NCBI GenBank assembly: GCA_021770005.1
Contig: JAETRV010000006.1
Location: forward strand, 4,372-68,371
DNA: 64,000 bases
Reading direction: 5' to 3'
Source of the DNA: Anaerotruncus sp.
Lineage (GTDB): Bacteria; Bacillota; Clostridia; Oscillospirales; Ruminococcaceae
In this document: positions 27,397 to 60,024 of the stretch, piece by piece
How positions within the stretch are numbered: position 1 is the stretch's first letter
Layout of the letters: every line of letters begins with the position of its first letter
Translations under genes and position numbers: made by a program
The notes under the pieces: generated by a model
Database searches by the model: none
Seen by the model: only the letters and a program-made list of their open reading frames with translations
Told to the model about the DNA's origin: nothing

Positions 27397-28341
27397 TCAA
27401 GCGGCGTTTTTCTGCCGCTCCTGTCGCTGCACCCGAACCTGAAGATCCTGGGAGAACATCTGAAGGGTGGAAAATTCGTCGTTCAGGTCGTCCAGCTGGC
27501 GGCGGAGGATACCTTCATAGTGCCGCCGCTTTTCTTCCAGCGCATCAATTTTGGCGATCCAGCGGTTCATCACCGCCGGGCTGGTGATGTTGGTGTCGAT
27601 GAAGTGCTTCACCCGTTCCTGGTAAAGCTCCACCTCCCGGCGCATGGCGATGTAGAACTCCTGGGCCATTTTGTCCCGCTGCTTCTGGTCGTCCAGCACA
27701 TACATACTGTTGACGACAAGCTGGCCGCTGTTCTGGTTGTTGGCGTTCAGGGCCTCGATGAAGTCCTCGAACAGCGTCACCTCCTGCATATGGGTGCGGG
27801 GGACAAAAAACAGCTTGCCGTGGATGGAAATAGGCAGGGCCTCCATCCGGGCAAGGAAAAGGTCGGTCAGACCTTCCACCTGTTTGCGGGTGGCACAGCG
27901 TTTATAAAGCCCGAACAATTCCTCCGCCTTCTGGCAGTAATCCCAGGGGTCCACCAGGCTGTCCACAGCCAGGTTGTCGTACCCCGTCTGCCGGTCCATC
28001 CAGAGGTTGGCCAGCTTGGTGTATTGGTTGGTGGTCTCCCCCAATTCTTCCTTCACCAGCTCCCGGCTGATGATCTGGGGGGATTTTTCGTTGTCCCGGC
28101 AGTAAATTTTGAAGATGCGACTGCCCTGGGTCTTTCGAGCCCGGATGTCCTTGGTGGCGCTGCGGAAGGCGTCCGCTTCACTTAACCGACTTCCTTTGGT
28201 GTATGGCAGATCCACCGACTGACAGAGCTGCTGCAACACCGGCTTTTCGATGAGGATCTTAGCAAGGGAGAAATACAGAATCTTTCCCAACACATCGCTG
28301 CTATCGCCCTTGACTGCCATAAAGTTGCTCATGTTCGTCAT
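27397..28341 (-). CDS. hypothetical protein with a coiled-coil C-terminus
   Basis: 314 aa with protein-like composition. Last gene of operon A. Ends ...QKNAA. Confidence 0.6.
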   Translation of the reverse strand: MTNMSNFMAVKGDSSDVLGKILYFSLAKILIEKPVLQQLCQSVDLPYTKGSRLSEADAFRSATKDIRARKTQGSRIFKIYCRDNEKSPQIISRELVKEELGETTNQYTKLANLWMDRQTGYDNLAVDSLVDPWDYCQKAEELFGLYKRCATRKQVEGLTDLFLARMEALPISIHGKLFFVPRTHMQEVTLFEDFIEALNANNQNSGQLVVNSMYVLDDQKQRDKMAQEFYIAMRREVELYQERVKHFIDTNITSPAVMNRWIAKIDALEEKRRHYEGILRRQLDDLNDEFSTLQMFSQDLQVRVQRQERQKNAA

Positions 28342-28364
28342 AGAGATACGCTCCTTTTCTTTGG

Positions 28365-29441
28365 TTATATAGATGGGATTTGCTCCACTTGTCCGGTGGA
28401 ATAGAGATGCCGGGCGTAGAGGAAATCATCGATCCCCTTAAACCGGGCGTCCCATTCCAGTGGCTCAAACAAAAGTCCGTTCTGGCGGGCGATCTTCTCC
28501 ACCTGGGAGAAGGCGTCCCGCACCTGGGGATTTTCCAGCTTGTCCATATCGTAGGCCCCCACCACCTTTTTCAGCGGCAGGCCGTTCAGTGTTTCGGGGA
28601 GGTACCGCAGGCTGTTGACCCCCGGCACGCAGACAAAGAGGGCGTCCCCCAGAAAATAGCTGGCGACATCCCCTTTGAGCCCGCCCTCGGTGACACAGGC
28701 CACCTTGCTTTGGGAGTCTCCGGTGACATGGACCCAGGTCTGGGCCTTGGTCCCCAAGGTAAAGCCCTTGGCGGGATTGCTGGAGAACCAGCGGTACTTC
28801 ATGCCGCCCTCGGCCCGGTCGGAACGGATCTGCATCCCCTGGATGTACCCGTCCTTGTTGTAGATGGGGATGAGATACCCGCCGTTTCCGGCAAAGGTCC
28901 ACGCCCCGTCCCGGAGGTAGAATCCGGGGACGCCTTTTAGCGGATAGCTGGCCGAGAGCTTGGCCGCGATCCTTTTTCTTGCGGAGTAGGAGGCCGGCAT
29001 CGAGCGATACCGGTTCTCCTTGATCCGCTCCAAGGACAGCCCTCGTTTTAAGAGCTGCTTCTGGTGAAAATCCGAAAGGGTCAGAAGGTCCAGCAGGTCG
29101 TAGTAAACATCATGGCGCAGGGCCAGAGGGGCCAGCTTTGAGGCTGGCTTTTTGGAGGGTGGGATTTTAGCGATTCCTTCCACTTTCTCCACAAGCTGGC
29201 GGTAGGCCGTTTTGTTGTCCACGCCGGTGATTTTGGCATACAGCGTGACGCTGTTGCCGCCTGTCCCGCAGCGGTGGCAGTAACAGAGATCCTCCTCGGT
29301 ATTGAGATACAGATGGTGGCTTTTGTCATCGCAAAAGGGGCACCGGGCCTGTACCTCAATATCATCCAGGGTGGACGGCTTCATCTGGAGGCCGCATAGA
29401 GCGGCAGCCTCCAGAATAGGGATGCGAATATAACCGTCCAT
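28365..29441 (-). CDS. DNA primase-like protein (CHC2 zinc finger + Toprim)
   Basis: 358 aa. CPFCDDKSHHLYLNTEEDLCYCHRCGTGG is a CHC2 finger; VTEGGLKGD and AYDMD are Toprim acidic motifs. AGGAGG RBS. Confidence 0.75.
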   Translation of the reverse strand: MDGYIRIPILEAAALCGLQMKPSTLDDIEVQARCPFCDDKSHHLYLNTEEDLCYCHRCGTGGNSVTLYAKITGVDNKTAYRQLVEKVEGIAKIPPSKKPASKLAPLALRHDVYYDLLDLLTLSDFHQKQLLKRGLSLERIKENRYRSMPASYSARKRIAAKLSASYPLKGVPGFYLRDGAWTFAGNGGYLIPIYNKDGYIQGMQIRSDRAEGGMKYRWFSSNPAKGFTLGTKAQTWVHVTGDSQSKVACVTEGGLKGDVASYFLGDALFVCVPGVNSLRYLPETLNGLPLKKVVGAYDMDKLENPQVRDAFSQVEKIARQNGLLFEPLEWDARFKGIDDFLYARHLYSTGQVEQIPSI

Positions 29442-29461: not shown

Positions 29462-29579
29462 ATTTTCGATAAATCGAAAATACGCACGCTTCGCGTGCTG
29501 GTGTCGCTTCGCGCCACCCCGTCTCATCGAAAATCCAATCAAGCAGTTTTCGGTAAATCTGATTTTGATTGGATTTTCG
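29462..29579. repeat. cluster of four inverted repeats with TTTTCGRTAA-type motifs (candidate ori/ssi or RNA element)
   Basis: ATTTTCGAT-aa-ATCGAAAAT at 29462-29481; gcacgc-ttc-gcgtgc at 29484-29498; ggtgtcgc-ttc-gcgccacc at 29500-29518; 15-bp perfect arms cgaaaatccaatcaa (29528-29542) / ttgattggattttcg (29565-29579). Confidence 0.6.
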
Positions 29580-31425
29580 GATAACTGGCTTTTTTGAGGG
29601 GGGCGGGGGCCGACTGGCCGGGGGTCACAACAGAGAGGGGCGCATTGGGCACCACCCTGGCCAGCAAGATCTGGTCCGGCAGCTTGGGCAGTCCGGTGAT
29701 GCTCTCCACATCGTCTATAAAGACGGGGTAGCGCCGCCCGGTGAGCCGCTTCATCAGCTGGGAGACCTCCAGGCCCGCCCGCAGCTTCTCCGAATGGGAA
29801 AGCCGCCGGTAATCCCTGCCGTTAAACTGAAAGCGGAAGGCGCTTTTCAGCTCCCCGGTGGTCTTCACCAGGTCGTAGAGAGAAATTTTCACCTGGGGCA
29901 TGGAGAGGCTGGCAAAGGAAAGCTCGTTTCGCACCGCCAGATAATTGACCGCGGCGCTCATCAGCAGCTTTTTTTGCCGGATCAATTCGTCCACTTCCTT
30001 TTCGCGGGCGTCCAAATCGGGGCCCGGCCGTGCGGCGACCTTCTCCAGAGCGGCCAGTTCTTCCTCCGCCTCCTGTTTCCTGGCGTGGAGCTCGGAAAGC
30101 CGCCGCATCTCCTCATCGTCCAGGTTTCCATAGGTCAGGCTGGCGTTATGCCCTTGGATTTGGCTGTCCAGAGCAGAAAGGGCTTCTCCGTGTTCCCGAA
30201 GCTCCTGTTCCATCTTTGCCCGCTGCCCGTGCAATCGGGCCAGCAGGGCGGCGTTTTTCTCCACATCTTCCTTGTGGAATTGTTCAAAGGTTTCCTGCGC
30301 TTGCTTTTCCAGTGCGGTCAGGTCGTTCAGCTGGGAACGCAGTCCCTGGCCTCGTGAGGTGACTTCCCCCAGCTTTTTGCGAAGATTTTCCTGAGCCTGG
30401 GCTACCGCATCAGCCGGGAGCGGCTGTTTACAGGTGGGGCAGATCGCGCCTGGCTGGGTACGGGAGAGCAGGACGCTTACCTGCTTATGCTCCGCCGCCG
30501 CAGCCTGGAGCGCCGCCTGAGTCTCGGCCAAAGCAGCGGTGAATTTGCCCTCGTAGCTTTTCACCCGCAGCCGTTCCTGGGCCAGCTCCGCCTGGCGCAG
30601 CTGTTCCAGCAGTTCCGGAGGAACCTCCTCCGGCTTGTCCCGAAGCAGCTCCTCGTACCGCTGGTGCAGCCCTTCCAGCTGTTTTTCCAAGGCGGGGCGG
30701 TCGATACCGGCCTCCCTTTTCTGTTCAAGAATGCTGATCTGGGCTTCAAGCTGGGCCAGCTGTTCCTTGCCCTGGGAGATAGCTTCCCTGTTTTCCTTCT
30801 GCTGCCGGAGCAGCTGGACCTTCTGGCCCTCCAGCACCAACTTTCCTTCCTCCAGGTCCCGAATTTCTTCCCGCATGGTTTTCAGAAAGGTCTCCGGCGA
30901 CAGGAGAGAGACATTCTCTAAAAGGGTCTGTTCCGGCTCGGCGAGCCGTTCCAACACCGCCTTGTGGTCGATGAGGGGAAGGTTTTTCTGAAGGAGAGTC
31001 TGTCCATCGTTCCCCAGCGTTTCAATGAAATAGAGGGGATTGAAGATGGAGAGAAATTCGTCCCGTTCCCCGAACATTCTGGCAAGGTCGGCCTGCCGGA
31101 TGGCGTAGCCGTCCCAGGTGACCTGCATCTTGTCCCGTTTCCGGGTGCGGACCAGCTCGTGGGAAACTCCCTTGTCGTCCTTGATCCAGAGGTGAATTTC
31201 AATGTCCGGCAAAGTCTCACAGTAGAGCTTGTCGATATGGGCCCCGCCGAAGCGGTCCTGGCCGGTGACAGCAAAGGCGATGGCATCCGCCACCGAGGTC
31301 TTTCCGGCGTGATTGGCTCCGGTGACAAAGCTCACCGGGCCGAAGTCGAAGGTCTGCTCCTCCCGGAAGCACTTGAAGCCGGAGACGGATAAACTGGTGA
31401 TTTGAAACCCGCTGATTTTTTCCAT
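29539..31425 (-). CDS. Rad50/SbcC-like SMC-family ATPase with coiled coil and CxxC hook
   Basis: ORF 29539..31434; ATG 31425 has AAGGAG 8 nt upstream. Walker A GANHAGKTS, a long heptad-rich middle containing GAICPTCKQPL, and a C-terminal VFIDDVESI (Walker B/D-loop). Confidence 0.7.
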   Translation of the reverse strand: MEKISGFQITSLSVSGFKCFREEQTFDFGPVSFVTGANHAGKTSVADAIAFAVTGQDRFGGAHIDKLYCETLPDIEIHLWIKDDKGVSHELVRTRKRDKMQVTWDGYAIRQADLARMFGERDEFLSIFNPLYFIETLGNDGQTLLQKNLPLIDHKAVLERLAEPEQTLLENVSLLSPETFLKTMREEIRDLEEGKLVLEGQKVQLLRQQKENREAISQGKEQLAQLEAQISILEQKREAGIDRPALEKQLEGLHQRYEELLRDKPEEVPPELLEQLRQAELAQERLRVKSYEGKFTAALAETQAALQAAAAEHKQVSVLLSRTQPGAICPTCKQPLPADAVAQAQENLRKKLGEVTSRGQGLRSQLNDLTALEKQAQETFEQFHKEDVEKNAALLARLHGQRAKMEQELREHGEALSALDSQIQGHNASLTYGNLDDEEMRRLSELHARKQEAEEELAALEKVAARPGPDLDAREKEVDELIRQKKLLMSAAVNYLAVRNELSFASLSMPQVKISLYDLVKTTGELKSAFRFQFNGRDYRRLSHSEKLRAGLEVSQLMKRLTGRRYPVFIDDVESITGLPKLPDQILLARVVPNAPLSVVTPGQSAPAPLKKASYPKIQSKSDLPKTA

Positions 31426-31455
31426 GCTTTTCACTCCTTTGGAAATATCAGGTCC

Positions 31456-32252
31456 TTACGCGGCGATCTCATAGCTTTCCAGCAGATTGACCACCTCGTT
31501 GTTTCTGCCCCGCTGCTGATTCAGCCGCACATTCCGCAGGCAGATGCCCTGGGCCAACTGCCGGTCGTCTCCGGGCCGCAGGCAGACGATCTGCCGCCCC
31601 TGCCGGTCGCAGAGGCTGAGGGCGGTGAGTTTTCCGTCCGGGGAGAGCTTCCTGTCTTGAACGGTGTAATCGAAGGTGAAGGAGCCGGACTTGGCCGGTT
31701 GGAAGGCGGAAGGTGCTGCCGCCGGTCTGGGCGCAGCTGTTCCTTGGGGCGCCGCCTTTTGCGGTGCTGGGGCTTTCCCCTGGAGCATCTGGGTGTACCT
31801 GGCGTCCAGGGACTTGCGTCCTGTCTCGGTGATGTAACAGTTTTTCCCTTCTGTTCCACATCCACCCAGACAGCGCCCAGGGAGTAGAGGTACCGGCCAA
31901 TGCCCCACTGGACAGCGGCCCGCTTGAAGGAATCGGAAAGCCCGCCCTTCACCGGCTCGATGTCGCTGTTCTCGGCCCCGTCGGTCTTGGTGACCCACTC
32001 CTTGCGCTCCTCATCGTAGATGGAGAGGGCACAGAGCTGGGAGCCGTTGCCGATCTGGTGCCAGGGGGCAAAGGTGGTTTTCCAGTGGAAGGGCCCCACC
32101 GTTTCGTCCAGCCGCTTCTGGATGGCCCGGCTGGTGATGAAGGCCACCGCCAGCCCCCGGCTTTTGTCCTGGGTGGTCTGTTGGATGCGCCACTCCACAT
32201 CCTGCGCCTCAAAGGGGGCGGTCAATTTCTGGATCAGTTCCTGCTCATTCAT
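31456..32252 (-). CDS. Rad52/Rad22-type single-strand annealing protein; the reading frame needs a -1 shift at 31848-31842
   Basis: The N-terminal part is ORF 31521..32252 (FEAQDVEWRIQQT...GLSDSFKRAAVQWGIGRYLY). After ...VDVEQKGK the zero frame becomes Arg/Pro/Ser-rich, while the -1 frame (ORF 31456..31998) reads NCYITETGRKSLDARYTQMLQ...NLLESYEIAA. Confidence 0.65.
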
Positions 32253-32265: not shown

Positions 32266-32928
32266 TCATTTCAGAAAATCCTTCAAAGTCCGCCCGCTGG
32301 GGATGAGGACTTTTTCGTAGTAGTGATCCGGTTCCTTATCCTTCATATATTCCAGAAGATCCCGGTGCCCCAGCTTCAGCTGGTTGTTGCGTGAGGTAAA
32401 ATGGTCGTCGTTGTTGGGCATCTCCAGAATCAAGTAGGGCAGAGAGGACAGGGTGTGCAGGCTCTTGCACTCCGGCAAGACATTCCCGCCGGTACACAGG
32501 TGAAAGCCGCTGACATTGGAAAAAGGGTAGTGGAACATGGGGGTGTCCGGCGTCAGCCGGCCCTCAGCCACTACGCCCATCTGGCAGTTTTGCACCCGCA
32601 GCCCCATATGCAGGCCAAAGCGGAAAACCAGCCTTGGTAGGGGAAAATGGGGATACACGGTATTCCCATAGGTGATGTCTGCGTATCGGGCCGGGTGTTC
32701 GATGGAAACGGAACGATAGCCGTTATTTCCGGCGTCAAAGGAGATGCAGCCTGTGGGCAACAGTCCGCTTTGGACCATTTCCCGCTGCAAACTCCCCTTG
32801 ATGCACTCCACCAGGGCGTTATACCCGATGCGCTTGGTGATGATGCTCCCCTCTGAGGAGCGGCTCTCCACCTTGATGGTGGCGGAGCCTGGGTCGATGT
32901 GTAAAATCAGTTCTTGTTCGGGGTTCAT
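32266..32928 (-). CDS. E2-like (UBC-fold-like) protein, putative
   Basis: 220 aa. FHYPFSNVSGFHLCTGGN resembles the HPN...Cys active-site strip of ubiquitin-conjugating enzymes and prokaryotic E2 families. Same operon as E1 and JAB. Confidence 0.45.
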   Translation of the reverse strand: MNPEQELILHIDPGSATIKVESRSSEGSIITKRIGYNALVECIKGSLQREMVQSGLLPTGCISFDAGNNGYRSVSIEHPARYADITYGNTVYPHFPLPRLVFRFGLHMGLRVQNCQMGVVAEGRLTPDTPMFHYPFSNVSGFHLCTGGNVLPECKSLHTLSSLPYLILEMPNNDDHFTSRNNQLKLGHRDLLEYMKDKEPDHYYEKVLIPSGRTLKDFLK

Positions 32929-33539
32929 CAGGCGGCCTCCTTCCAGTTTTCCGGTCTCGGCAACGGCAGGTAGAGGACCTTCGCCTTCCGCTCCCGGTCA
33001 TACTTCCAGATCTCATACCGCAGCTCCTCCACCATATGCTTGTAATAATCGAAGATATGGGCGAGGGCTTTTAACAGAGAAAACTCCTGGTTGAACTCCG
33101 GGGAGAGGTAAAGGGTGATCCCGCTGGCCCACCGGTGGTTGACTTTCGTGCTGTAACGGTAGGTGTAATAATAGGAATATAGGCTGTCCAGCTGTTCCTC
33201 CAGCTCCGTCTTTGCCTGTTCCATATAAGGATTTCGCCGCAGGGGGACTCCTCTTTGTCTGGACCAATCCCGGCACAGGCGGTAAAAATCCATCATGCTC
33301 CGGTGGCTGAAAAACCAGCAGGTATCCATATAGGGTCCAACCTCTCGGCATTTCCAGAAGTCACAGACAGTGGTCACTCCCTCGATGATGTAGGAGTAAT
33401 AATCCTCCGCCACGATTGGCAATGCGCCGATCCCTTCCAGGTAATCCTCTTCCCTTCCGGCGTCGCTGAGGACCTTGCCGACCAGGATGGGGATGGGGAT
33501 AAGGCTCAGCTCAAAATTCTCATACTCGTAATCGTCCAT
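32928..33539 (-). CDS. hypothetical protein (aromatic-rich, 203 aa)
   Basis: GAAGGGGG RBS. Its stop overlaps the start of the E2-like gene (TGATG). Ends ...NWKEAA. Confidence 0.55.
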   Translation of the reverse strand: MDDYEYENFELSLIPIPILVGKVLSDAGREEDYLEGIGALPIVAEDYYSYIIEGVTTVCDFWKCREVGPYMDTCWFFSHRSMMDFYRLCRDWSRQRGVPLRRNPYMEQAKTELEEQLDSLYSYYYTYRYSTKVNHRWASGITLYLSPEFNQEFSLLKALAHIFDYYKHMVEELRYEIWKYDRERKAKVLYLPLPRPENWKEAA

Positions 33540-33552: not shown

Positions 33553-33858
33553 TCAGCAAAAGGCCCGCCGGAGGCTTTGGGAAATCGACCGACTGCAAAG
33601 CTGCCGGTTCATTTCCCATAAATAGAAGCGGCGATGGTAGTGGATCTTCGCCCCGTCCAGCAGGTCGTATAGGTCATCCAGGGTGAACCGGGAGTAGTCG
33701 ATTTGCTTGGGGATCAGCGGCTCTCCGTTCAAAATGGGGGAACAGACAGCTTCCATTAGGTAAGGGTCTATCTCTGCAAACTCGTTTTCGGCGGTATCCT
33801 CTGAGGTATCTTCCAGCAGCTGCCGGAAGGTCTGGGAATTTAATTCATACATTTTCAT
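33553..33858 (-). CDS. hypothetical acidic protein (101 aa)
   Basis: AAGGAG RBS directly after the methyltransferase stop. MKMYELNSQTFRQLLEDTSEDTAENEFAEIDPYL... Confidence 0.5.
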   Translation of the reverse strand: MKMYELNSQTFRQLLEDTSEDTAENEFAEIDPYLMEAVCSPILNGEPLIPKQIDYSRFTLDDLYDLLDGAKIHYHRRFYLWEMNRQLCSRSISQSLRRAFC

Positions 33859-38133: not shown

Positions 38134-38162
38134 TGTGTTTTCCTCCTTCTTTGTTTTGGGAC

Positions 38163-39864: not shown

Positions 39865-39889
39865 AGCGGGCAAGAGGCCAGCAGCCCTG

Positions 39890-50017: not shown

Positions 50018-50335
50018 TCAGACCAAATCTCTAAACACAAGACGGTTGGCGCAGCTCTCGATGGTATCCCGCACATCCTCCATGTAGCGGGTCTCCAGCT
50101 TCTGCCACTCCCGGTAAATATCCGCCAGAGGACAGGGAGAATCCAACAGGGCGCTGCCCTGCTCCACCGTAACATCCCGTTCCTCCAGCGCCATGAGAAT
50201 ATCCTCTCGGACACTGTACTCATAGGCGTGGTCTAAAATCTCCATGGGCGACAAGCCCAAAAGCCAGTCTCGGTAGGTATCCTGCTCCGCTTTCATCTTC
50301 CGGTACAAAATCGTAGTGAGTTCTTCCGCTGTCAT
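50018..50335 (-). CDS. hypothetical protein (resembles DUF3848-type proteins of Clostridia mobile elements)
   Basis: 105 aa. MTAEELTTILYRKMKAEQDTYRDWLLGLSPMEILDHAYEYSVREDILMAL. Confidence 0.5.
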   Translation of the reverse strand: MTAEELTTILYRKMKAEQDTYRDWLLGLSPMEILDHAYEYSVREDILMALEERDVTVEQGSALLDSPCPLADIYREWQKLETRYMEDVRDTIESCANRLVFRDLV

Positions 50336-50350
50336 ATCATCAATACCTCC

Positions 50351-51943: not shown

Positions 51944-52014
51944 AAGTTGTCCTTTCCGGCGTCCAAAATGGGGAGAGCCGAAGCCCTCCCCGTGGTAACG
52001 CCACAGTTTATTTT

Positions 52015-52530: not shown

Positions 52531-52872
52531 TTATGGTTCCTCCTGTTCTTTTAGGGCGGGATTTTCCCTGCCCTGCTTGTCGTAGATATTCCAGAGGATG
52601 TGCCGGAGCGTTTCCCGCCAATCCCGCCGTTCGTACCGAAACCAACGGCAAAGGGTCAAAAGAGGATGGGGAAACCGGTTCAGATACAGCAGATGCTCCT
52701 CATTCCAATCCCCGATACCGGAAAGCCGGCGGTAGAGGGTCTCACAGACAGCGATCTCTTCTGACCTGGCAAGAAACGCCTGGGGCGTAAGCCCGGAAAT
52801 CCTCTGACGAAAGGTGGCGTAGTCCAAGTCCAGCTTGTCCCGAAGCCCCTGTGGAAGATCATTTCTGCCCAT
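52531..52872 (-). CDS. hypothetical protein (113 aa)
   Basis: ORF 52531..52971 trimmed to ATG 52872 (GGAAGGTGG upstream). Confidence 0.45.
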   Translation of the reverse strand: MGRNDLPQGLRDKLDLDYATFRQRISGLTPQAFLARSEEIAVCETLYRRLSGIGDWNEEHLLYLNRFPHPLLTLCRWFRYERRDWRETLRHILWNIYDKQGRENPALKEQEEP

Positions 52873-53062
52873 TTGCAGACCACCTTCCCAGCCCCTTGCG
52901 AAAGCCCGCAAGGAAATTCTCTGCCAGCTTGCCGAGGAAAACGGCCAGTCCACCCAGCAGCCACAGGCCAATGAGAACCTGCGCCACCCTGGAGCGCAGC
53001 AGGCAGAGCAGCAGGATAACCAGGGTGATGCCGATGAGTACCGAAAGCAGCTTGTGTTTCAT
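52859..53062 (-). CDS. small membrane protein (67 aa, two TM segments)
   Basis: MKHKLLSVLIGITLVILLLCLL...VLIGLWLLGGLAVFLG. Fills the gap between the MoxR gene and the downstream gene. Confidence 0.45.
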   Translation of the reverse strand: MKHKLLSVLIGITLVILLLCLLRSRVAQVLIGLWLLGGLAVFLGKLAENFLAGFRKGLGRWSANGQK

Positions 53063-53078
53063 AACTTAGTCCTTTCCT

Positions 53079-54458
53079 TTAATTCTGGTTGCCGGGGCCC
53101 ATCAGGGCCTCCAGCTCGTTCAGTGGGATGTAGGTGAGATTGGTGGCGGCGTGGGCCTTCTGGCTGGCCTTTTCCAGTTCCTCCAGCAGCCCGTCCACCT
53201 GGGCAGTTTCGGTGTCGTTCTGGGCGTAGGCCCGCAGAGCGGTGATCTTGCGGTAAAGCTCCACCGCCTCGGTGCGGAACCGCTGGAGCGCCCGCACCAC
53301 ATCCCCGTCCGGGGTCTGCTCAAACCGGGCCACAGTATCCACCACCGCCTTGCGGATCTCAGAGATCTTCCCGCCCAGGGGATTCTCGCAGAGGCGGGTC
53401 AGCACCTGGCTGATCTTGGGCAGCTCCTCCGGGCTGGTCCATAGGTAGTTGCGGAGGATGATCAGGTCTGTCCCGATTACCTCATCCCTGCCGCAGAGCC
53501 AGGCGTGGGCCTGGACGATGGGGTAATAGCCGAAATATTTCCGGTCGGAGACATGGACTCCCTGCCGGCGCAGTTCCATGAGGATGTCGTCCATCAGCTC
53601 ATTCACCGCAGCCGGGACACGCACCGAGGAAACCTCCTTCTGCATTTCACAGAGTTCCTCCAGGGTGATGGTGGGCCCGGTAAGAGGGGCCTCCTTGTCC
53701 TCGGCCTGCTTTTTGACCAGCATCGCCAGCCGGGTATTCCGGTCCTCTATGTACTTGACATAGAGCTTCAGCTCCAGCCGGTCGTAGAGGGGCCGGAGGA
53801 TGGACTCAGCGGGGTCGTTGAAATTGGGAATTTCATTGGACGCCGTGAAGAAGGAGATGGTGGGAATGTCCACCGTCACCCCCTCGTTGGTGTACCGCCG
53901 CTCGTTGAGGGCGGTGAGCAGGGAGTTTAAGACCCCATCGCCAGCCTTAAACAGCTCGTCAATGAAGACAATATGGCTCTCTGGGATCTTCCCCTTAGTC
54001 TTGATATGGGGGTCGTTGCCGTGAAGCTCCGCCAGGGCCTTTCGGTAGTCCTGGGTAAGCTGTGCCATTTCCCCCACCTGCCGGAGCCGTTCCGGGGCGG
54101 GGTCGTTGGCTAGGTTTTGCCGGGCATCAGACAACCCCTTTCGCAGGGACTGATAAACGCTGTCCTGCTCCAGAACCTCCTCGGAGACATTTCCGGGGAT
54201 GAGGCTCCCCAGGTCCAGGCGGCCAAAAAGCTGCTCCTCGTCACTCTGCTTGGAGATGAGCCGCTCAAACTGCTTCGCCCCCAGGATGCGGCGGCGGAAC
54301 CGGTTGATGGCGTAGCTTTTGGCCGCGCCGGTATCCCCCAGGATAAAGAGGTTTTTCCTGGTGAGCAGACAAACGGCGATCATGTTGATAAGCTCCCGGC
54401 GTTCGGCCACTTCCTCATTGACAGCACTGATAACAGCGATCATTTTTTCCTTCAGCAT
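53079..54458 (-). CDS. MoxR-like AAA+ ATPase
   Basis: 459 aa. Walker A GDTGAAKS, Walker B IVFIDELFKA, followed by NSLLTALNERRY. Confidence 0.75.
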   Translation of the reverse strand: MLKEKMIAVISAVNEEVAERRELINMIAVCLLTRKNLFILGDTGAAKSYAINRFRRRILGAKQFERLISKQSDEEQLFGRLDLGSLIPGNVSEEVLEQDSVYQSLRKGLSDARQNLANDPAPERLRQVGEMAQLTQDYRKALAELHGNDPHIKTKGKIPESHIVFIDELFKAGDGVLNSLLTALNERRYTNEGVTVDIPTISFFTASNEIPNFNDPAESILRPLYDRLELKLYVKYIEDRNTRLAMLVKKQAEDKEAPLTGPTITLEELCEMQKEVSSVRVPAAVNELMDDILMELRRQGVHVSDRKYFGYYPIVQAHAWLCGRDEVIGTDLIILRNYLWTSPEELPKISQVLTRLCENPLGGKISEIRKAVVDTVARFEQTPDGDVVRALQRFRTEAVELYRKITALRAYAQNDTETAQVDGLLEELEKASQKAHAATNLTYIPLNELEALMGPGNQN

Positions 54459-54766
54459 TTTCCATTCCTCCTAACATACCAGCCCATGACATCACAGATC
54501 TTCCGGCTCTCCTCGATGGCGGCGGCGTCAGACCTGTCCAGGTCCGTCTCCTCGGCCAAGCGGGTAATCAGCAGCGCGGCGATGCGGTAAAGGCCGGTGT
54601 TACTTTCCTCCTCCGAGCCTGCCAGCAGGCAGTCTACAAACCGGTTATAGTTTTCCGGCTGGCTGGCCATAGAACCGGCGAATTTCTTCAGTTCCATGGC
54701 AAGGTTCCCGGCGGAGATAGTACGCTCCGCCCGCTGGGGTCTCAAAACTCTTGTTGTCTCGCGCAT
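54452..54766 (-). CDS. hypothetical protein (104 aa)
   Basis: Tightly packed in the operon: it overlaps the MoxR start by 7 nt and begins 1 nt after the stop of the upstream gene. Confidence 0.45.
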   Translation of the reverse strand: MRETTRVLRPQRAERTISAGNLAMELKKFAGSMASQPENYNRFVDCLLAGSEEESNTGLYRIAALLITRLAEETDLDRSDAAAIEESRKICDVMGWYVRRNGKC

Positions 54767-54767: not shown

Positions 54768-55145
54768 TTACGCAGCCTCCTTTTTCATTTCCTCGTTGCA
54801 GATCTCAATGACCTCCTGGCACTGGGCCATGGTAAACTGGGCGATATGGGTGCGGTAGTCGGGAAGCTTCATCTTTTTTGCCAGCCAGTGGTAGGCTTCG
54901 CTCCGTTTTAGCCCCTTTTTTCTCCACAGGGGGTCAAAAGCGTTGTGGGCTTCCCGGCGCTTGCTTCTCAGGGCGGCGTTGGCCAGCGTCCCAAGGGGCT
55001 TTTTTGTCCCATCGTGGACGCCCACATAGGCCCCGCAGTTGGTGCAGTAGTAGATGTTCCCATAGCTTTTGCCGTGGTAGACGATAGCGGAATCGGTGAA
55101 GATCACCTTGCCGCCGCAGTAATCGCAGATAGTGGGGATTTTCAT
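54768..55145 (-). CDS. zinc-ribbon protein
   Basis: ORF 54768..55172 trimmed to ATG 55145 (GGAGG upstream). CDYCGG...CTNCGAY has two CxxC pairs. Ends ...KKEAA. Confidence 0.55.
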   Translation of the reverse strand: MKIPTICDYCGGKVIFTDSAIVYHGKSYGNIYYCTNCGAYVGVHDGTKKPLGTLANAALRSKRREAHNAFDPLWRKKGLKRSEAYHWLAKKMKLPDYRTHIAQFTMAQCQEVIEICNEEMKKEAA

Positions 55146-55161
55146 AGAGATGACCTCCTTC

Positions 55162-55758
55162 TTATGCCGCAAGCTGTACCCGCAGCTTTTTCCTTGTCCG
55201 GTAGAGGCAGTTATCTACCGTCTTGGGGTCCATGCCGGAACGCTCCGCGATCTCAGCGTAGGTATGGCCGAAGGAGCGCAGGCGCAGCACATTCCCCTGG
55301 CGGACAGTGACCAGCTTTTTGGTTTTGTCCCACAGCTCGCTGAACTCCGCAGCTTCATAAGCCTCCCCGGATACCGAGGCATCGGAGAGAAAGCGCAGGG
55401 CCGCCTCATAGGCGGAGCTGTCCTGGTTTATCCGGGAGCGGCGGCGGGCCTCCTTTCGGATAAGCCCCAGCAGCTCCCAGCGCATGGCGTTGACCGCCAC
55501 GGTGGTGAAGCTGTATCTCCGTAGCTCCGGGCGTTCATCGTACTGCTGGACCGCCCGCATATACCCGTCCAGGGCGGCATCGTAAATATCCTCCTTCTCC
55601 AAAAAGGAAAAGGGGACTTCTTCGGAAGAACGACAGGCGTTCTTCTGGTTTACCCAGCGGAAGGAGAGGAACCATTTCAGGAGGCTGTAATGCTCCTCCA
55701 TGAAGCTGCTTTGCTCCGGAGTAAAGGGGTGCAGGGTGGTATTGGTTCTTTCACTCAT
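55162..55758 (-). CDS. sigma-70-family (ECF-like) RNA polymerase sigma factor
   Basis: 198 aa. Region 2-like DIYDAALDGYMRAVQQYD; region 4 HTH LRSFGHTYAEIAERSGMDPKTVDNCLYRTRKKL. Confidence 0.7.
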   Translation of the reverse strand: MSERTNTTLHPFTPEQSSFMEEHYSLLKWFLSFRWVNQKNACRSSEEVPFSFLEKEDIYDAALDGYMRAVQQYDERPELRRYSFTTVAVNAMRWELLGLIRKEARRRSRINQDSSAYEAALRFLSDASVSGEAYEAAEFSELWDKTKKLVTVRQGNVLRLRSFGHTYAEIAERSGMDPKTVDNCLYRTRKKLRVQLAA

Positions 55759-55770: not shown

Positions 55771-56958
55771 CTATGCGGCTTTGGCCGCGGTCTTTTTGGT
55801 TTTGGCGGTCTTTTTCTTGGCGGAAGCCTTTTCCTTCTGCTCCTGCTCTACTTTCGCCTTTTCCACGCGCTTGACCGGCCGTCTGGGGACCAGCATATAC
55901 TTCTCGCTCCCGTTGGCGGCAATCAGCACGCCGTCCTGGGAGACAGACAACGCCAGCATCCCCTCCATGAGGCGGATGCCCTGGAGAAAATCGGACGCCT
56001 TGTAATAGAAACCGGTGTCCCCCGGCATGGCGTTCAGCACCCCTGCCTCCAGCCAGGTGCTGGAGTTGACCCCGTTGGGGCCATCGCAGGAGAGAAAGAG
56101 CTTTTTGTCCAGGGAGAAGCGCAGCTGAAGGCTACTGTATCCATCGGTGGCAGCGGTGACCATCTCCACCGCCTGGCGGAGGGCCTTGGCTTCCACCAGC
56201 GCCCGGTATTTCCCCGGCGTGGCCAGAAGTCCGTCCACATCCAGATAGGGGATCTCCACGATCCGGGAGGTGAAGTACAGGCCCGGCCGGAAGAAAACGG
56301 CGCTGTGGTCCTGTATCCCCAGGTAGACGGTCTCCTTATCCTCCACCAGCCCCGCTAATACACGAAGGGACTTGGCGGGGAGCAGAAGCTCCAGAGCGCC
56401 GCCGCTTTCCGCCTTTTCCCTTGTTTCCACAAGGCGGCTGCCATCGCAGGCAACAGCCTGGACGGAATTGGGGGCGATCTCCAGGCGGACGCATTCCATC
56501 TGCTTCTGTTCGCTTTTCTTGGCGGCGGCAAAGGTGGTGGATCGCTCCAGAGAGGGCAGGCCGGTGAGCCGCACCAGGGTATCCGGCACCGGTATCTTCA
56601 CGCTGGTGAGGATGTCCGGCTTCAAGGTCCCAACGGTGTATTCGGTGTCCCGGCATTTTAGGCGGAGCAGCCCGTTTTTTAGGGACTCCACCGAAACGCG
56701 GTCTCCGCTGGTCAGGCCCAGCATACCGGTGAGCAGCTGGGCGTTGATGATGGCGGAGCCACCGGCCTCCACATCCGCCTGAACCTCGCAGCGGATGGCG
56801 ATCATCAGGTCGGCCCCGAAAAAGGATACCTGCCCGGTGTTTTCATCGGCTTCCACCAGGACACCGGTGAGTTCGGCGATGGGGGAGTTTTCGGGAGCCG
56901 CCTGGGCCGCCTTACGGGCGGCGGAGAGGGCTTGTTTTCTATCAATATGGAATTTCAT
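55771..56958 (-). CDS. dnaN: DNA polymerase III beta-subunit-like sliding clamp (element-encoded) with a Lys/Ala-rich tail
   Basis: 395 aa. MKFHIDRKQALSAARKAAQAAPENSPIAELTGVLVEADENTGQVSFFGADLMIAIRC... has a three-domain clamp-like layout. Confidence 0.65.
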   Translation of the reverse strand: MKFHIDRKQALSAARKAAQAAPENSPIAELTGVLVEADENTGQVSFFGADLMIAIRCEVQADVEAGGSAIINAQLLTGMLGLTSGDRVSVESLKNGLLRLKCRDTEYTVGTLKPDILTSVKIPVPDTLVRLTGLPSLERSTTFAAAKKSEQKQMECVRLEIAPNSVQAVACDGSRLVETREKAESGGALELLLPAKSLRVLAGLVEDKETVYLGIQDHSAVFFRPGLYFTSRIVEIPYLDVDGLLATPGKYRALVEAKALRQAVEMVTAATDGYSSLQLRFSLDKKLFLSCDGPNGVNSSTWLEAGVLNAMPGDTGFYYKASDFLQGIRLMEGMLALSVSQDGVLIAANGSEKYMLVPRRPVKRVEKAKVEQEQKEKASAKKKTAKTKKTAAKAA

Positions 56959-56976: not shown

Positions 56977-59900
56977 TTAAGCAGAAATCTGCTCGAAGAA
57001 AGAGAGTTGGTTTTCGTCTGTTTCGGCAGGGGCCTTTTTCCTCCGGCGTGCCAGCTGGCTGTAAGTGATGAAGGTAAGGGGCTGGGTAGGCTCCGTCGGC
57101 TGTTCGGCCACCGGGAGCAGGACCACTGACTTGGGAATCGGCTTCTCCGGGGGCGGCAGTTGCCGCACCTCGCCTTGTGGGTGCAGAAAGGCCATCTTCT
57201 TAAAGACAGCGCCGATATCCTCTACCTCGCTCTTGATCCCCAAAGCCAGCTCCTTGGCCAGCTGGGAGGTCATATCCTGGCAGTTGGACATGGCGGCAAG
57301 GCCCTCATCGGTGATGTTCCCCTCGATGATACCGGCCACCGCCAGCTTGGAGGCCATGAGCTGCATGGCCCGCTCCTGGATGGTGTGCTTGTAGTAGAAG
57401 AAGTACACTTCCACTCTGGGGGCGGTCTGGTTGATCCGCCAGCTGCGGCGGGAGGCTTGGCGCAGGGTGAACAGGTTGTACCCCATGTTATAGAAGATGA
57501 GGGTGGTAAAGGCATTGGCGTCCAGCCCCGTCTCAATAAGGGAGGGGTTGCAGATGAGGACCTCCAGGCCGTTTGCCAGCTGCTTTTCGATCCACCGCTC
57601 CCGCTTGATGGGCTCAATGTTCGCAGGCAGCACGGCGGCGCGGCAGCCCCGTTGGGTCAAAAGCCCCAAGAGCTTTTGCTGGGTGTCGATCCGCACCCAG
57701 CTGGTGTAGATCAGTACCTTTTCCCCCTTCTCCACCTTCTGCCGGACCAGCTCCAGGACTTTCATATCCTTCTGGTGCAGTTCCTCCGGCTGGGCGGTGT
57801 CCATGGGAATCACCAGCGGCCTGCCATCGTAGTCCAGCACCGGCGGGATGCCGTAGGGTTGGTCGGGGTAGACCGTGAGGGTGTTGAGATAGGCAGAAAG
57901 GAGCTTCCTGGCGGTTTTCCGGTCCGAGCGCATCAGGCTTTGGAAGGCTTCGGTGAGGCGTTTATACTCCCGCTCCACCTCCGGGCGCATGGCAAGCCCG
58001 ATGGGAATTTCCTCGTATTCGGGTAGGTCCTTCCCCATATCCATCAGGGAGAGAAAGGCCGTGTTTTCCAGGAGAAAACGGGAGTAGACCAGAGGGGAGA
58101 CCCCCGGCAGCATCCGTTCCCCTTTTTTCGTGCGGGAGGCCCTGCGGTTGGCGTTGTACTTCGCCTCCTTGGCCTCGAAGGTGCTTTCCACCACGCCGTA
58201 CTCATAGCAAAAATGCTTGGGAGCAGCATACGCCTGACCGTCCGCCACCATCTCCGCCGGGGCCAGCCGGAACAAGAGGTGGAAGATGCCGGAGGCATAG
58301 CCGTTGATAAGGGTGGCGGTCATACCCACCACCTTTTTTGCCGTCCCCGCGATCTCCGCCATAGCGTCCCCCTGGCCGCTGTCCTGGGCATACTGGTGAA
58401 GTTCATCCGCAAGGAGGGAGTCGATCTTTCCCTTCATCTTCCGTCTGATGAAGGAGCTGATGGGGAATCGCCGGCAGCCATAGGAGGGATTGTCGAACCT
58501 TTCCGGGTTTTGGGAAAGCTCCCGCAGCGAATCCAGTACCTGGGGCGACCGGGTCTTGTTCTGGTAGGTCCAGAGGAAATCCCGATGGACAAAACCGAAG
58601 CCGCCGATTTTTGCCCATTCGTGAAAACGGGAAGATGGGGCAGCAGCACAAAGAAACTGTTCTGGTTTGCAGAAGGGCTCCCACAGAACGCCGCCGCACT
58701 CTTTGCACTTGTGGTTTTTGCTGTTCTCCCGCAGAAAAAAGGCCGGTTCGGCTGGGACATCATAATGAATCCTGCCTTCGCTGATCTCCTCCATAATAGG
58801 GTTATGGCAGTGTGGACAGAGGAAAGCCTTTTTTCGTCGGTTCCACTGGACAGCGGGGGCCCGCAGATACCCGTCCCTGGCCCGCTCTTTGGAGAGGATA
58901 GCGTAGGCGGTGCGGTCTCCCTTTTCGTAGGCCCGGTAGAGTTTTTTCAGGTCCCGGATGCTGGTGACGATGCCGGCAAAGGCGTCCGGGACTGTTTCCT
59001 CCACCTCCCGCACCCACTTTTCGGTGATGTGGGAGGGGCAGAGGACTACATTGAAGGTCTTTTTCTTTCCGACGGCCAGGTGGCTGGCGGTGAGAGCGGT
59101 GAGGCCGATCTTCGTTTTTCCCACACCACATTCCGCCACCAGCAGGGCGGGCTGGTGTTGATCCAGCCTTCGCTTCAGCCCTTCAGCTGCGGCAAGCTGG
59201 GCATCGTAGAGGGGGTATCCGGCCTTCCGGCGGATGTTGTCGTTGACGGTCAGGACGCTCTGGGAAAGCGCCTCCGATGCCGGGTCGAACAGGGGGACAA
59301 ACTGCCCCTTGATCCGCTGGGCGATGTTGGCCCCGAATTTTTGCAGATACCCGGTGACCGTCTGAATGTCCTCGAAAGCGGCGGCGTTCTCCGGCGTGGA
59401 GCCGGGGATGGAGATGCTACCGCTTTTCAGCCCGTCCTCCACGACCTGGACGATGTTCCTGTCGTCCTTGGTGCAGGTGAGCTGCCAGGCGTCAAACCGC
59501 TTGGTGCGGCTGATGACCTCCAGCTTTCGCAGGATGCTCCGCTCTTGCAACTCCGCCAGCAGGTAGTCCCGGAAATCGGGGATGAGGAGGACGCCGATGC
59601 GCTTGTCGATCTCGCTGAACAGGCGGTCCCTGTCCCCCTGGGGGCAAAAGATGTAGCGTCTCAGCGGCGGGCCCTCCAGTTTCGTCTGCCCTTTCTGGGC
59701 TTTTTCCTGTGCCGCCGGTTCCGGTTCGCTGTCCCGCAGGAACAGGGTAGCCTCGGCGTAGATACCATCGTGGGTAAGCTGCCGCTGGTATTGCTTGGGA
59801 AGGGTGTCCAGCTTTAAGTCCGGCTCCACCTCCACAGTGCCGCCGCCATAGATGGCGTCCGCAAGCCCCCGCACCTTTTCCGGTTCCCCGCCAAAGCGGA

Positions 59901-60024
59901 TGGCCGCCAGCTGGGGGCCATTGTCTCCGGCCGGGTCGTACACGATGGTATCCGCATAGCAGTCGAGCCGAATGCCTCCTTTCTTGTCCTCGTAGGTCAC
60001 TTTCCAAAGTTGTGGCTGGCTCAT
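56977..60024 (-). CDS. SNF2/DEAD-like superfamily-2 helicase with an inserted zinc ribbon and a ~280-aa unknown N-terminal domain
   Basis: 1015 aa. Motif I AECGVGKTK, motif II LADELHQY, zinc ribbon CPHCHNPI...CKECGG, and a helicase-C region ...QASRRSWRINQ. Confidence 0.8.
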   Translation of the reverse strand: MSQPQLWKVTYEDKKGGIRLDCYADTIVYDPAGDNGPQLAAIRFGGEPEKVRGLADAIYGGGTVEVEPDLKLDTLPKQYQRQLTHDGIYAEATLFLRDSEPEPAAQEKAQKGQTKLEGPPLRRYIFCPQGDRDRLFSEIDKRIGVLLIPDFRDYLLAELQERSILRKLEVISRTKRFDAWQLTCTKDDRNIVQVVEDGLKSGSISIPGSTPENAAAFEDIQTVTGYLQKFGANIAQRIKGQFVPLFDPASEALSQSVLTVNDNIRRKAGYPLYDAQLAAAEGLKRRLDQHQPALLVAECGVGKTKIGLTALTASHLAVGKKKTFNVVLCPSHITEKWVREVEETVPDAFAGIVTSIRDLKKLYRAYEKGDRTAYAILSKERARDGYLRAPAVQWNRRKKAFLCPHCHNPIMEEISEGRIHYDVPAEPAFFLRENSKNHKCKECGGVLWEPFCKPEQFLCAAAPSSRFHEWAKIGGFGFVHRDFLWTYQNKTRSPQVLDSLRELSQNPERFDNPSYGCRRFPISSFIRRKMKGKIDSLLADELHQYAQDSGQGDAMAEIAGTAKKVVGMTATLINGYASGIFHLLFRLAPAEMVADGQAYAAPKHFCYEYGVVESTFEAKEAKYNANRRASRTKKGERMLPGVSPLVYSRFLLENTAFLSLMDMGKDLPEYEEIPIGLAMRPEVEREYKRLTEAFQSLMRSDRKTARKLLSAYLNTLTVYPDQPYGIPPVLDYDGRPLVIPMDTAQPEELHQKDMKVLELVRQKVEKGEKVLIYTSWVRIDTQQKLLGLLTQRGCRAAVLPANIEPIKRERWIEKQLANGLEVLICNPSLIETGLDANAFTTLIFYNMGYNLFTLRQASRRSWRINQTAPRVEVYFFYYKHTIQERAMQLMASKLAVAGIIEGNITDEGLAAMSNCQDMTSQLAKELALGIKSEVEDIGAVFKKMAFLHPQGEVRQLPPPEKPIPKSVVLLPVAEQPTEPTQPLTFITYSQLARRRKKAPAETDENQLSFFEQISA

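Follow-up and report, generated by a model that had tools for sequence, protein, structure and literature searches.

Proteins encoded by an integrative element of gut Clostridia end in Ala-Ala (AA) far more often than expected by chance, and these tails are real, conserved at the amino acid level, and specific to particular families. They do not depend on the E1, E2, and JAB genes (hereafter the trio) in the same operon. The best-supported explanation, to which we give about an even chance, is that the AA ends are encoded ssrA-like C-terminal degrons that would be read by host ClpXP.

Layout of the element

The window, meaning the whole stretch of DNA analysed, comprises 64,000 nt of Anaerotruncus sp. 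(GCA_021770005.1; contig JAETRV010000006.1, positions 4,372–68,371, forward strand). The element spans ~22.8–60.1 kb, from an integrase beside a tRNA-Met gene at its left end (22603–22679, + strand; ARAGORN) through an SNF2-type helicase gene. The tyrosine integrase is split into two ORFs on the − strand (22872–23228 and 23303–24160; Pfam Phage_integrase and Phage_int_SAM_3), neither of which has an AA tail. Between the JAB and VWA genes, positions 38527–49949 hold cargo genes that Pfam assigns to an amidase, MarR, MatE, DUF362, an ArsP permease, a DXP-synthase-like protein, a transglutaminase-like protein, and an HTH protein. None of these is AA-tailed. The original prediction had treated the 38.5–50 kb stretch as lying outside the element; it is cargo within a single element, and homologous elements carry other cargo at the same site. 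A Pfam search between the integrase and SNF2 identified no type IV secretion system (T4SS), coupling-protein, or relaxase genes.

Enrichment and conservation of Ala-Ala tails

AA tails occur in the window on six intact ORFs and on two frames restored over frameshifts. Among called genes they are found in 6/20 from the element and, as originally predicted, in none of the others (0/33; Fisher P = 0.0017); the element count has a binomial P of 3e-8 against an expectation of 1%. A wider sample covered ~100 related loci, with DUF6744 identity down to 36% and GC content of 35%–60%. Among non-redundant proteins, AA ends 165/413 (40%) in the core and at most 14/588 outside it (Fisher P = 2e-56); of these 14 exceptions, no fewer than 11 are themselves encoded by element genes. 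The tails persist at 36%–37% DUF6744 identity and in an element with 35% GC.

Tails are found on more than a dozen unrelated families (by the more cautious count, at least 12), including DUF6744, Rad52, the SMC-like ATPase, E1, the clamp, sigma, DUF3268, SNF2, and several unknowns. They are never found on E2, the methyltransferase, SSB, MoxR, VWA, or the integrase. Tailed and untailed status is fixed across lineages regardless of gene spacing, and orthologs conserve the tails in, for example, the 203-aa unknown (hyp203), Rad52, and clamp families (counts below). Conservation peaks at the last residue, where A is far above S and G, and the penultimate residue is small. At −3, K, E, R, and Q predominate; Leu makes up just 8%, and Pro is present. 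Because all four Ala codons are found at both terminal positions and Ala content is effectively the same inside and outside the core (8.0% and 9.0%), selection is on the peptide rather than on a GCNGCN motif.

Tails of individual genes

The genes described here all lie on the − strand. Every AA tail and single-Ala end given for the window agrees with the original prediction, the restored frames included. The first gene of the block encodes the SNF2-type helicase (56977–60024; Pfam ResIII and Helicase_C), which ends QISA; its orthologs include LMAA, AIAA, DTAA, and EAAA (AA in 5/9). A DnaN-like sliding clamp (55771–56958; Pfam DNA_pol3_beta) ends AAKAA, with AA in 12/14 unique ortholog tails. 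The sigma-70-family factor (55162–55758; Pfam Sigma70_r4_2) ends VQLAA, and all three unique ortholog tails have AA, including KEAA in the 35% GC element. For the DUF3268 zinc-finger protein (54768–55172; Pfam E = 8e-46), which ends KKEAA, the count is 3/4. The genes hyp105, VWA, SSB (DLPF), hyp146, MoxR, and hyp104 (50018–54766; Pfam) have no AA tails.

On the other side of the cargo, the JAB metallopeptidase (36741–38175; motif HxHx7Sx2D) is fused to E1 by a +1 G in a G-run (36850–36862) relative to homologous locus L001; every homologous locus has the two as separate genes. The restored JAB frame ends KGAMAA, matching L001–L003, and an AA ending of JAB is limited to the window's own clade. 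The ThiF-type E1 (35971–36744; Pfam ThiF) ends KEKRR in the window, where a DNA comparison with the close relative L002 (KEKRRKAA) shows an exact 9-bp loss of Lys-Ala-Ala; orthologs have AA in 8/12 unique tails, mainly RRKAA. An unknown 202-aa protein (35366–35974) ends QELAA (AA in 12/14 unique ortholog tails). The DUF6094 methyltransferase (33865–35283; Pfam E = 2e-116) ends KALA, with AA in 0/18 unique tails, and an unknown 101-aa protein (33553–33858) has a conserved non-AA ortholog tail, [RK]xF[CFV] (AA in 0/27 unique tails, FC in 24).

The next gene, hyp203 (32928–33539), ends WKEAA, with AA in 29/31 unique ortholog tails and invariant residues C89, R90, H135, W137, and S139. Its AF2 model (pLDDT 80.6), the only one built for an AA-tailed protein, has no fold match in the PDB and low confidence over the last ~14 residues, which suggests that the tail is probably flexible. 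The Prok-E2_D-like protein (32266–32928) scores 23.5 bits against PF14460, below the 25-bit cut-off; its homologs carry PF14460 and Cys145 is invariant. It ends DFLK (AA in 0/20 unique tails), and a fold search of the PDB with its AF2 model gave no significant match.

The Rad52-like annealing protein (31456–32252; Pfam Rad52_Rad22) has a frameshift near 31836–31900, located from the ORFs and by tblastn with the L014 ortholog. Its N-terminal domain (31836–32252) continues in the frame of ORF 31456–31998, restoring the end YEIAA; the intact L014 ortholog ends RYEIAA. Unique ortholog tails have AA in 17/21 and VA in three more. The SMC/Rad50-like ATPase (29539–31434; Pfam AAA_23 and SMC_N) ends PKTA after a short extension, and its orthologs end PKAA, RKAA, QKAA, or KKAS/KKAG (AA in 14/23 unique tails). 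A primase-like protein (28365–29441; Pfam CHC2 zinc ribbon and DUF3854) ends IPSI, and its orthologs vary: RKTA, RRTA, KKAA, ESAA, QKAG, or AA followed by M or Q. DUF6744 (27397–28341; Pfam PF20529, E = 2e-99) closes the operon and ends QKNAA, with its two final Ala codons at 27400–27405. Among 91 representatives of 50%-identity clusters with intact C-termini, A is terminal in 81 and AA in 57.

The bias in phages and loci without the trio

In 73 Rad52-anchored phage loci without E1, E2, and JAB, AA ends 150/1706 genes (8.8%). Other genes in these loci are AA-ended in 11.5% of cases if Rad52 is and in 2.5% if it is not (P = 4e-13). By GenBank annotation, Yersinia phage OM046622 has AA in 8/44 early and 1/29 late genes. 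In lambda, Bet, Ea10, Ral, NinB, NinC, NinG, and p35 are AA-ended; of the 26 late genes, which include several cases of ATGA stop/start overlap, only the portal protein gene is. An E. coli K-12 sample had none (0/42 genes). Since the same bias occurs in enterobacterial lambda-like phages without E1, E2, and JAB, AA tails do not require the trio. The bias is 3–4 times stronger in trio-carrying elements than in trio-less phages. In three DUF6744 loci without the trio, AA occurs in 0/54 genes; the DUF6744 homologs there end TT, ES, and AV, and their neighbors have no AA.

A proposed degron function

Of the three interpretations in the original prediction, a ClpXP turnover tag is the one that came out best, by inference from published E. 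coli degrons and from the AA bias in early genes of lambdoid phages without the trio. We infer both ClpXP as the reader and rapid turnover as the outcome. A short flexible tail with a free Ala-Ala carboxylate would be bound by the unfoldase ClpX of the host and the protein passed to ClpP. The short-lived subset would consist mainly of DNA-transaction and regulatory proteins (Rad52, the SMC-like ATPase, SNF2, the clamp, sigma, the zinc-finger protein, E1, DUF6744, and several unknowns), and the methyltransferase, SSB, E2, MoxR/VWA, and integrase would be the stable products of the same polycistronic message.

RecN and the N-terminal fragment of LexA are cleared by ClpXP via LAA/VAA ends. As in such (L/V)AA proteins and ssrA-tagged substrates of ClpX (C-motif-1), element proteins have Ala-Ala at the extreme end of a probably flexible tail, with neutral or positive charge upstream of it, and the carriers act transiently on DNA. 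Unlike the ssrA tag, the putative element degron is gene encoded rather than added by tmRNA, most often has K, E, R, or Q at −3 instead of Leu, and is shared by ~40% of a single operon's proteins. In a screen of random C-terminal tags in E. coli, Ala-Ala ended 91% of the top 100 degrons and was the dominant short C-degron, and the consistent degrons were all ClpXP dependent (PMC10862746). Leu was favored and Pro disfavored at −3, and Ala-Ala alone was insufficient (PMC10862746). Given their −3 residues, many element tails would be weak degrons under E. coli rules. For Firmicutes, the RqcH literature describes Ala tails as ClpXP degrons. In mycobacteriophages whose immunity is integration dependent, encoded ssrA-like -AA tags on the repressor and the integrase are established (PMC8092301; reference 40 therein); these phages are temperate elements that, as proposed here, encode destabilizing ends on their own proteins. 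There, one or two switch proteins carry the tag and integration removes it, whereas the integrase here is untagged and the tails are operon-wide on replication, recombination, and regulatory proteins.

Alternative explanations

A second reading, by analogy with type II CBASS, is that the AA ends serve as handles on which the element's E1, E2, and JAB act with no ubiquitin-like protein; we consider it unlikely. In this scheme E1 adenylates the small residue at the C-terminus, E2 would take it up as a thioester and conjugate or cap it, and JAB would reverse the reaction, with a whole set of operon proteins as substrates, unlike CBASS; such handling could run alongside ClpXP, for instance if it masked the free carboxylate. 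All AA-rich loci of the Firmicute family have the trio in the same operon, but so do all elements of the family, and the co-occurrence is inseparable from shared descent. The stronger bias with the trio, the tail-free trio-less DUF6744 loci, and the conservation of the terminal residue favor this scheme, as do the conserved catalytic motifs (nucleotide-binding and Asp in E1, the E2 Cys, and the JAB motif). Also in its favor, no beta-grasp ubiquitin-like protein was found: Pfam was negative on all small ORFs and the hyp203 model is not beta-grasp. Against it, the E2 call is at the profile level, with no fold match.

In type II CBASS, Cap2 (E1-E2) and Cap3 (JAB) act on the cGAS C-terminus, whose Gly/Ala is conserved only with Cap2 and Cap3 (PMC10097602). 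The element likewise co-encodes a ThiF-type E1, a conserved-Cys E2-like protein, and JAB beside proteins with a conserved small C-terminal residue (Ala). It differs in that E1 and E2 are separate small proteins, no CD-NTase or effector is present, candidate substrates are many rather than one, and the terminal pattern also occurs in trio-less phages. MccB, a ThiF-type protein (9egc), and Cap2 are the nearest solved relatives of E1, all weak matches, and the likeness to Cap2 is confined to the Rossmann region. The substrate interpretation is further weakened because E1 itself is AA-tailed and because a dozen unrelated substrates addressed through a two-residue tail have no precedent.

It is less probable still that AA or its GCN GCN codons favor termination and re-initiation in early operons whose genes are closely packed and translationally coupled. 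In the element, ATGA overlaps do have a higher AA frequency (29.7%, versus 19.6% at TAA and 19.7% at non-overlapping TGA), and the ATGA comparison in trio-less phages is 27% versus 13%. GCA is the final Ala codon in 107/150 cases from enterobacterial phages, giving GCATGA, and positions −3 and −4 often hold K, E, R, or G, residues encoded by purine-rich Shine-Dalgarno-like codons. However, DUF6744 has the most conserved tail with no coupled gene downstream, TAA and non-overlapping TGA do not differ, every Ala codon is used, lambda late genes, some with ATGA overlaps, lack AA except for the portal protein gene, and family tail status ignores gene spacing. The GCNGCN-stop context proposed earlier as a trivial cause is therefore rejected.

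A signal for another machine, either a conjugative type IV secretion coupling protein that would send tailed proteins into recipients or the element's own MoxR/VWA, is highly improbable. In its favor, basic tails ([KR][KR]AA) are common and some type IV secretion signals are also basic, and MoxR is an element-encoded AAA+ ATPase. Against it, T4SS, coupling-protein, and relaxase genes are absent between the integrase and SNF2, lambda-like phages have the trait, L011 has AA tails without MoxR/VWA, and L098 has MoxR-VWA-DUF6744 without AA tails.

Relation to temperate phages

A ClpXP degron is the best-supported account of the tails, although the 3–4-fold stronger bias with the trio and the 0/54 count without it would also be compatible with a reader encoded by the element. 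Tails deviate jointly within some lineages (KKCA, KKAS, YEVA, QKAG, and KKAV in L019–L026; ITA, RAT, EVA, and KTA in L014), which would fit a co-evolving reader of this kind. Lambda-like early (pL/pR) operons resemble the element in being densely packed on one strand, with a single-strand annealing protein, SSB, methyltransferases, and small unknowns, and their early genes are enriched in AA, which is rare among late genes. In contrast to them, the element in the window lacks virion and lysis genes, uses AA 3–4 times more often, and has the trio, SNF2, a clamp, a sigma factor, and an SMC-like ATPase in addition. The trait of the element is an extreme form of a bias found in temperate-phage early operons generally.

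Ala-Ala C-termini in the element and its relatives

All C-termini quoted in the original prediction were correct, both restored frames included. Of the 20 genes called for the integrative element in the window, 6 encode a C-terminal Ala-Ala (AA tail), compared with 0 of 33 other genes (Fisher p = 0.0017), and against a 1% expectation the count has a binomial p of 3e-8. The same enrichment was found in homologous elements, where AA ends occur in 165 of 413 non-redundant proteins inside the core span versus 14 of 588 outside it (Fisher p = 2e-56). At least 11 of these 14 are the element's clamp, sigma, or SNF2 genes. AA ends are conserved in orthologs, family by family. The analysis thus bears out the Ala-Ala observation, at a strength well beyond what was visible from the window sequence alone.

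Homologous elements (loci carry L numbers) were gathered through methyltransferase homologs, a DUF6744-anchored metagenome scan, three viral scans, and distant DUF6744 representatives; a scan of genome contigs with the methyltransferase returned four close loci only. Close relatives of the window element are mouse-gut Oscillospiraceae MAGs. Gene order is kept across homologous elements. In L086, 9 of 15 consecutive operon genes have AA ends, with none past DUF6744. The pattern persists in an element with 35% GC (L114/L115) and in L127, where DUF6744 identity is just 36%. Deletion variants without some or all of E1, E2, JAB, Rad52, and SMC (L071, L087, L053, L038, and L112) keep a DUF6744 ending in RKAA or KKAA. 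The SNF2, clamp, and DUF3268 proteins of L087 end in DFVA, KEEA, and MDKK, not AA.

Organization of the element

Pfam scans and a tRNA search delimited a single integrative element of ~37 kb, from ~22.8 to 60.1 kb of the window, with tRNA-Met at one border and host aldo/keto-reductase and LysR genes at the other. The tRNA-Met gene (22603–22679) adjoins the integrase end, an arrangement that suggests integration at a tRNA gene; a search for an att site found no direct repeat of ≥12 bp joining this end and the SNF2 end (60025–60120). In transcription order, one minus-strand block codes for an SNF2 helicase, a DnaN-like clamp, a sigma factor, a DUF3268 zinc-finger protein, hyp104, MoxR, hyp146, SSB, VWA, and hyp105. 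The second codes for JAB, a ThiF-type E1, hyp202 (35366–35974), a DUF6094 methyltransferase, hyp101 (33553–33858), hyp203 (32928–33539), a Prok-E2_D-like protein, Rad52, an SMC/Rad50-like ATPase, a primase-like protein, and DUF6744, followed on the same strand by DUF6431, an excisionase-like HTH protein, and a tyrosine integrase; YpsA lies on the opposite strand. Pfam scans identified no virion, lysis, or conjugation genes in the element. In literature searches, neither the element family nor its tails were described, and no account of DUF6744 or DUF6094 in such a context was found.

The two blocks are separated by ~11 kb of cargo, and the VWA/JAB junction is a cargo hot spot. It holds amidase, MarR, MatE, ArsP, and DXP-synthase-like genes in the window (38527–49949), BlaR/BlaI-like genes in L005 (1481–6512), and an arsenic-resistance set with GmrSD in L014 (1128–6631). 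The window copy is damaged at several points: two ORFs make up the split integrase (22872–24160), Rad52 is frameshifted (31456–32252), and one additional G in a G-run (36850–36862) fuses JAB to E1, which are always separate genes in homologous elements. E1 has an in-frame 9-bp loss (at 35971–35976) that is exactly the Lys-Ala-Ala end retained in L002. These lesions reflect either decay of the element or indel errors in the assembly.

Distribution of tails among families

Counted among unique tails, AA ends predominate in hyp203 (29/31), hyp202 (12/14), the clamp-like proteins (12/14), and Rad52 (17/21, with three further tails in VA), and are frequent in the SMC-like proteins (14/23, the remainder mostly KKAS or KKAG), E1 (8/12), sigma (3/3), DUF3268 (3/4), SNF2 (5/9), and a 153-aa family, f15 (5/9). 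All five listed copies of a 99-aa family and all four of a 67-aa family have them as well. DUF6744 has a terminal Ala in 81 of 91 representatives at 50% identity (AA 57, CA 13, VA 5, SA 3, and TA 2). AA was never found in E2 (0/20), the methyltransferase (0/18), the hyp101 family (0/27), or the acidic-tailed f7 family (0/21), nor in the SSB, MoxR, VWA, and integrase families.

Some families have other characteristic ends. The hyp101 family (~98 aa; orthologs from L005 to L127) has its own conserved terminus, [RK]xF[C/F/V]; a ~185-aa operon family has acidic ends (HED, DSN); and a ~95-aa operon family has EEY or DEY at its end. In the commonest human-gut lineage (L027–L093), the E2-like protein has a Gly-Gly terminus (...KDFIGG), and elsewhere it ends in NRR, GR, SN, or LK. 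In the primase-like protein of L011, L064, L084, L086, and L110–L112, Ala-Ala is followed by one residue (SRAAAM, SRVAAM, SRAAAQ, and SRIAAQ). Tails deviate jointly in L019–L026 (KKCA, KKAS, YEVA, QKAG/QKAS, and KKAV) and in L014 (ITA, RAT, EVA, and KTA), as though the tolerance of the reader varied by lineage or host.

In every element the gene for hyp203 is directly upstream of E2, with translational coupling between the two, and Cys89, Arg90, His135, Trp137, and Ser139 of hyp203 are invariant. Its AF2 model, the only one made of an AA-tailed protein, has a pLDDT of 80.6 that falls to 48–57 over the last ~14 residues, a tail that is probably flexible. A PDB neighbor search with the model returned nothing, and the predicted structure may be a new enzyme fold.

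Ala-Ala ends in early genes of lambda-like phages

An unexpected corollary concerns lambda-like phages, whose early genes have the Ala-Ala bias as well. In 73 Rad52-anchored phage loci without detectable E1, E2, or JAB, AA ends occur in 150 of 1,706 non-redundant genes (8.8%). Other genes are AA-tailed at 11.5% where the Rad52 homolog itself ends in AA (as ELKKAA, DLNKAA, or ELKQAA) versus 2.5% elsewhere (p = 4e-13). Two of these loci were searched against a phage collection; L193 matched Enterobacter and Klebsiella lambdoid phages, and L185 matched Yersinia ones. Using the depositors' annotation of Yersinia phage vB_YenM_06.16-1 (OM046622, L210), AA ends were counted in 8 of 44 early versus 1 of 29 late genes. 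In lambda (NC_001416, L211), they are found on Bet (QKVAA), Ea10, Ral, NinB, NinC, NinG, and p35, and among late genes on the portal protein alone. For E. coli K-12, no AA end occurred among the 42 genes of a 50-kb sample. No account of an Ala-Ala bias in lambdoid early genes was found in the literature. Since these phages have the bias without the trio (the element's E1, E2, and JAB), no reader encoded by the element is required for the trait.

Tails as candidate degrons

Random C-terminal tags in E. coli gave a set of degrons in which 91% of the top 100 end in Ala-Ala, all consistent ones being ClpXP-dependent (PMC10862746). Encoded -AA "ssrA-like" tags on the repressor and integrase of mycobacteriophages are an accepted mechanism (PMC8092301), and the RqcH literature describes Ala tails as ClpXP degrons in Firmicutes. 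On these grounds the element tails can be read as C-degrons, and we consider it an even call that they are encoded ssrA-like turnover tags, one of the possibilities raised in the original prediction. Ala-Ala is at the extreme C-terminus, as in ssrA (six intact and two restored proteins in the window), and phages without the trio share the bias. The hydrophobic Leu of ssrA at position -3, however, is mostly missing: the 124 AA tails have K 31, E 21, R 14, L 10, Q 10, M 9, and P 4 at this position, and Q 28, K 26, E 20, and R 17 at position -4; residues upstream of Ala-Ala are variable and polar. In the same E. coli screen, Leu at -3 was favored, Pro was disfavored, and Ala-Ala alone was insufficient (PMC10862746). 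With Leu rare and some Pro at -3, many of the element tails may therefore be weak degrons.

The reader would be ClpXP, which is common to the hosts of elements and phages. E. coli RecN and the N-terminal fragment of LexA are cleared likewise. As degrons, the tails would make selected proteins encoded by a polycistronic operon short-lived, mainly those acting on DNA or transcription, and would leave the methyltransferase, SSB, E2, and integrase stable. In mycobacteriophage integration-dependent immunity -AA is found on Rep and Int, whereas the element integrase is not AA-tailed in the window or its relatives. Relative to known ssrA-like degrons, what would be new is the use of encoded tags across a whole operon.

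The E1-E2-JAB trio as a possible reader

The original prediction also raised the possibility that the tailed proteins are substrates of the co-encoded E1 and JAB. Catalytic motifs are conserved in all three enzymes. The E1 adenylation domain (Pfam ThiF, E = 4e-12) has invariant GxGxxG-type and DGD/VDNN motifs, with weak matches to PADLOC E1-E2 and, by profile, to structures of 9egc (a ThiF-type protein), MccB, and Cap2. The JAB motif HSHNSMAAQFSSID fits HxHx7Sx2D, and the Pfam Prok-JAB match (E = 5.5e-5) is just under the cut-off. The E2 candidate reaches 23.5 bits for Prok-E2_D, where the cut-off is 25 bits; its homologs, which among the matches listed are close relatives only (≥46% identity), carry PF14460, and Cys145 is invariant. 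A PDB search with its AF2 model (pLDDT 84) gave no significant match, which leaves the Pfam profile and the invariant Cys as the basis for calling it an E2. A viral scan with E2 recovered the same element family only.

No ubiquitin-like protein (Ubl) was found in the operon: ten small or unknown operon proteins were negative for a beta-grasp Ubl in Pfam, apart from one 16.6-bit match to RBD_SIN1, and the hyp203 model is not a beta-grasp. The RBD_SIN1 match, a weak one to a beta-grasp Ras-binding domain, is in a 79-aa family that ends in NW and is missing from the window. Bil/Bub-type systems differ in having a Ubl beside E1/E2. Type II CBASS offers a possible analogy, since the C-terminal Gly/Ala of its cGAS is conserved solely alongside Cap2 and Cap3 (PMC10097602). 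The Ala-Ala bias described here, in contrast, also occurs without the trio, and the CD-NTase and effector of a type II CBASS operon have no counterparts in the element operon by Pfam and PADLOC scans.

Within the DUF6744 family, three trio-less loci, among them a jumbo-phage-like one (L095) and an HTH-MoxR-VWA-DUF6744-FtsK element (L098), have non-Ala DUF6744 ends and AA in 0 of 26 (L095), 0 of 18 (L098), and 0 of 10 (L100) genes. AA bias is 3–4 times stronger where the trio is present, and the joint tail deviations in L019–L026 and L014 could be explained by a co-evolving element-encoded reader. Against this, AA enrichment is found in early genes of lambda, the Yersinia phage, and ~40 enterobacterial phage loci, all without the trio. 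The strength of the bias and the joint deviations thus leave a contribution of the trio to reading the tails conceivable, and we regard it as unlikely. Somewhat less probable again is a dual use, in which the tails would by default leave a dozen of the element's proteins open to ClpXP and E1-E2-JAB would act directly on the same termini; a Ubl-less E1-E2 would adenylate them and then conjugate or cap, and JAB would reverse this.

Other explanations for the tails

A trivial origin in a GCNGCN-stop context favored for translational coupling, the remaining suggestion of the original prediction, is contradicted by the data. All four codons are used for both the penultimate Ala (GCG 46, GCA 31, GCT 24, and GCC 23) and the last (GCA 48, GCG 35, GCC 26, and GCT 15). 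AA frequency is 19.6% before TAA, 19.7% before a non-overlapping TGA, and 29.7% in an ATGA overlap, and DUF6744, last in the operon, has the most conserved tail. Neither the motif nor ATGA coupling can be the sole cause. Composition bias was rejected as well, as Ala content is alike inside and outside the element (8.0% and 9.0%) and the 35% GC element is still AA-tailed. Codon variety, equal Ala content, stop-context frequencies, and the DUF6744 tail therefore argue for selection on the peptide.

MoxR/VWA was rejected as the reader, because L011 has tails without MoxR/VWA and L098 has MoxR/VWA without tails. A clamp-binding motif was set aside, as the clamp itself is tailed and Ala-Ala would leave the hydrophobic pocket unfilled; a type IV secretion signal was rejected on the lack of transfer genes in the 37-kb element, and a gene-calling artefact on the agreement of the GenBank annotations of OM046622 and lambda.

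Implications

If the trio reads the tails, CBASS-type C-terminal conjugation would be extended to many substrates at once. Were the dual use true, a three-enzyme module would act as a switch for the stability or the assembly of an entire replication-recombination proteome, making it the first ubiquitin-like system to be tail-directed and multi-substrate. Should the tails be degrons, a two-residue code would set the lifetimes of individual proteins from one long operon. The same logic would then apply to recombineering proteins in daily use, lambda Bet and NinB/Orf, with a possible route to improved recombineering tools, and for uncharacterised mobile elements of gut Clostridia, Ala-Ala would serve as a sequence-only marker of early proteins that are "transient".
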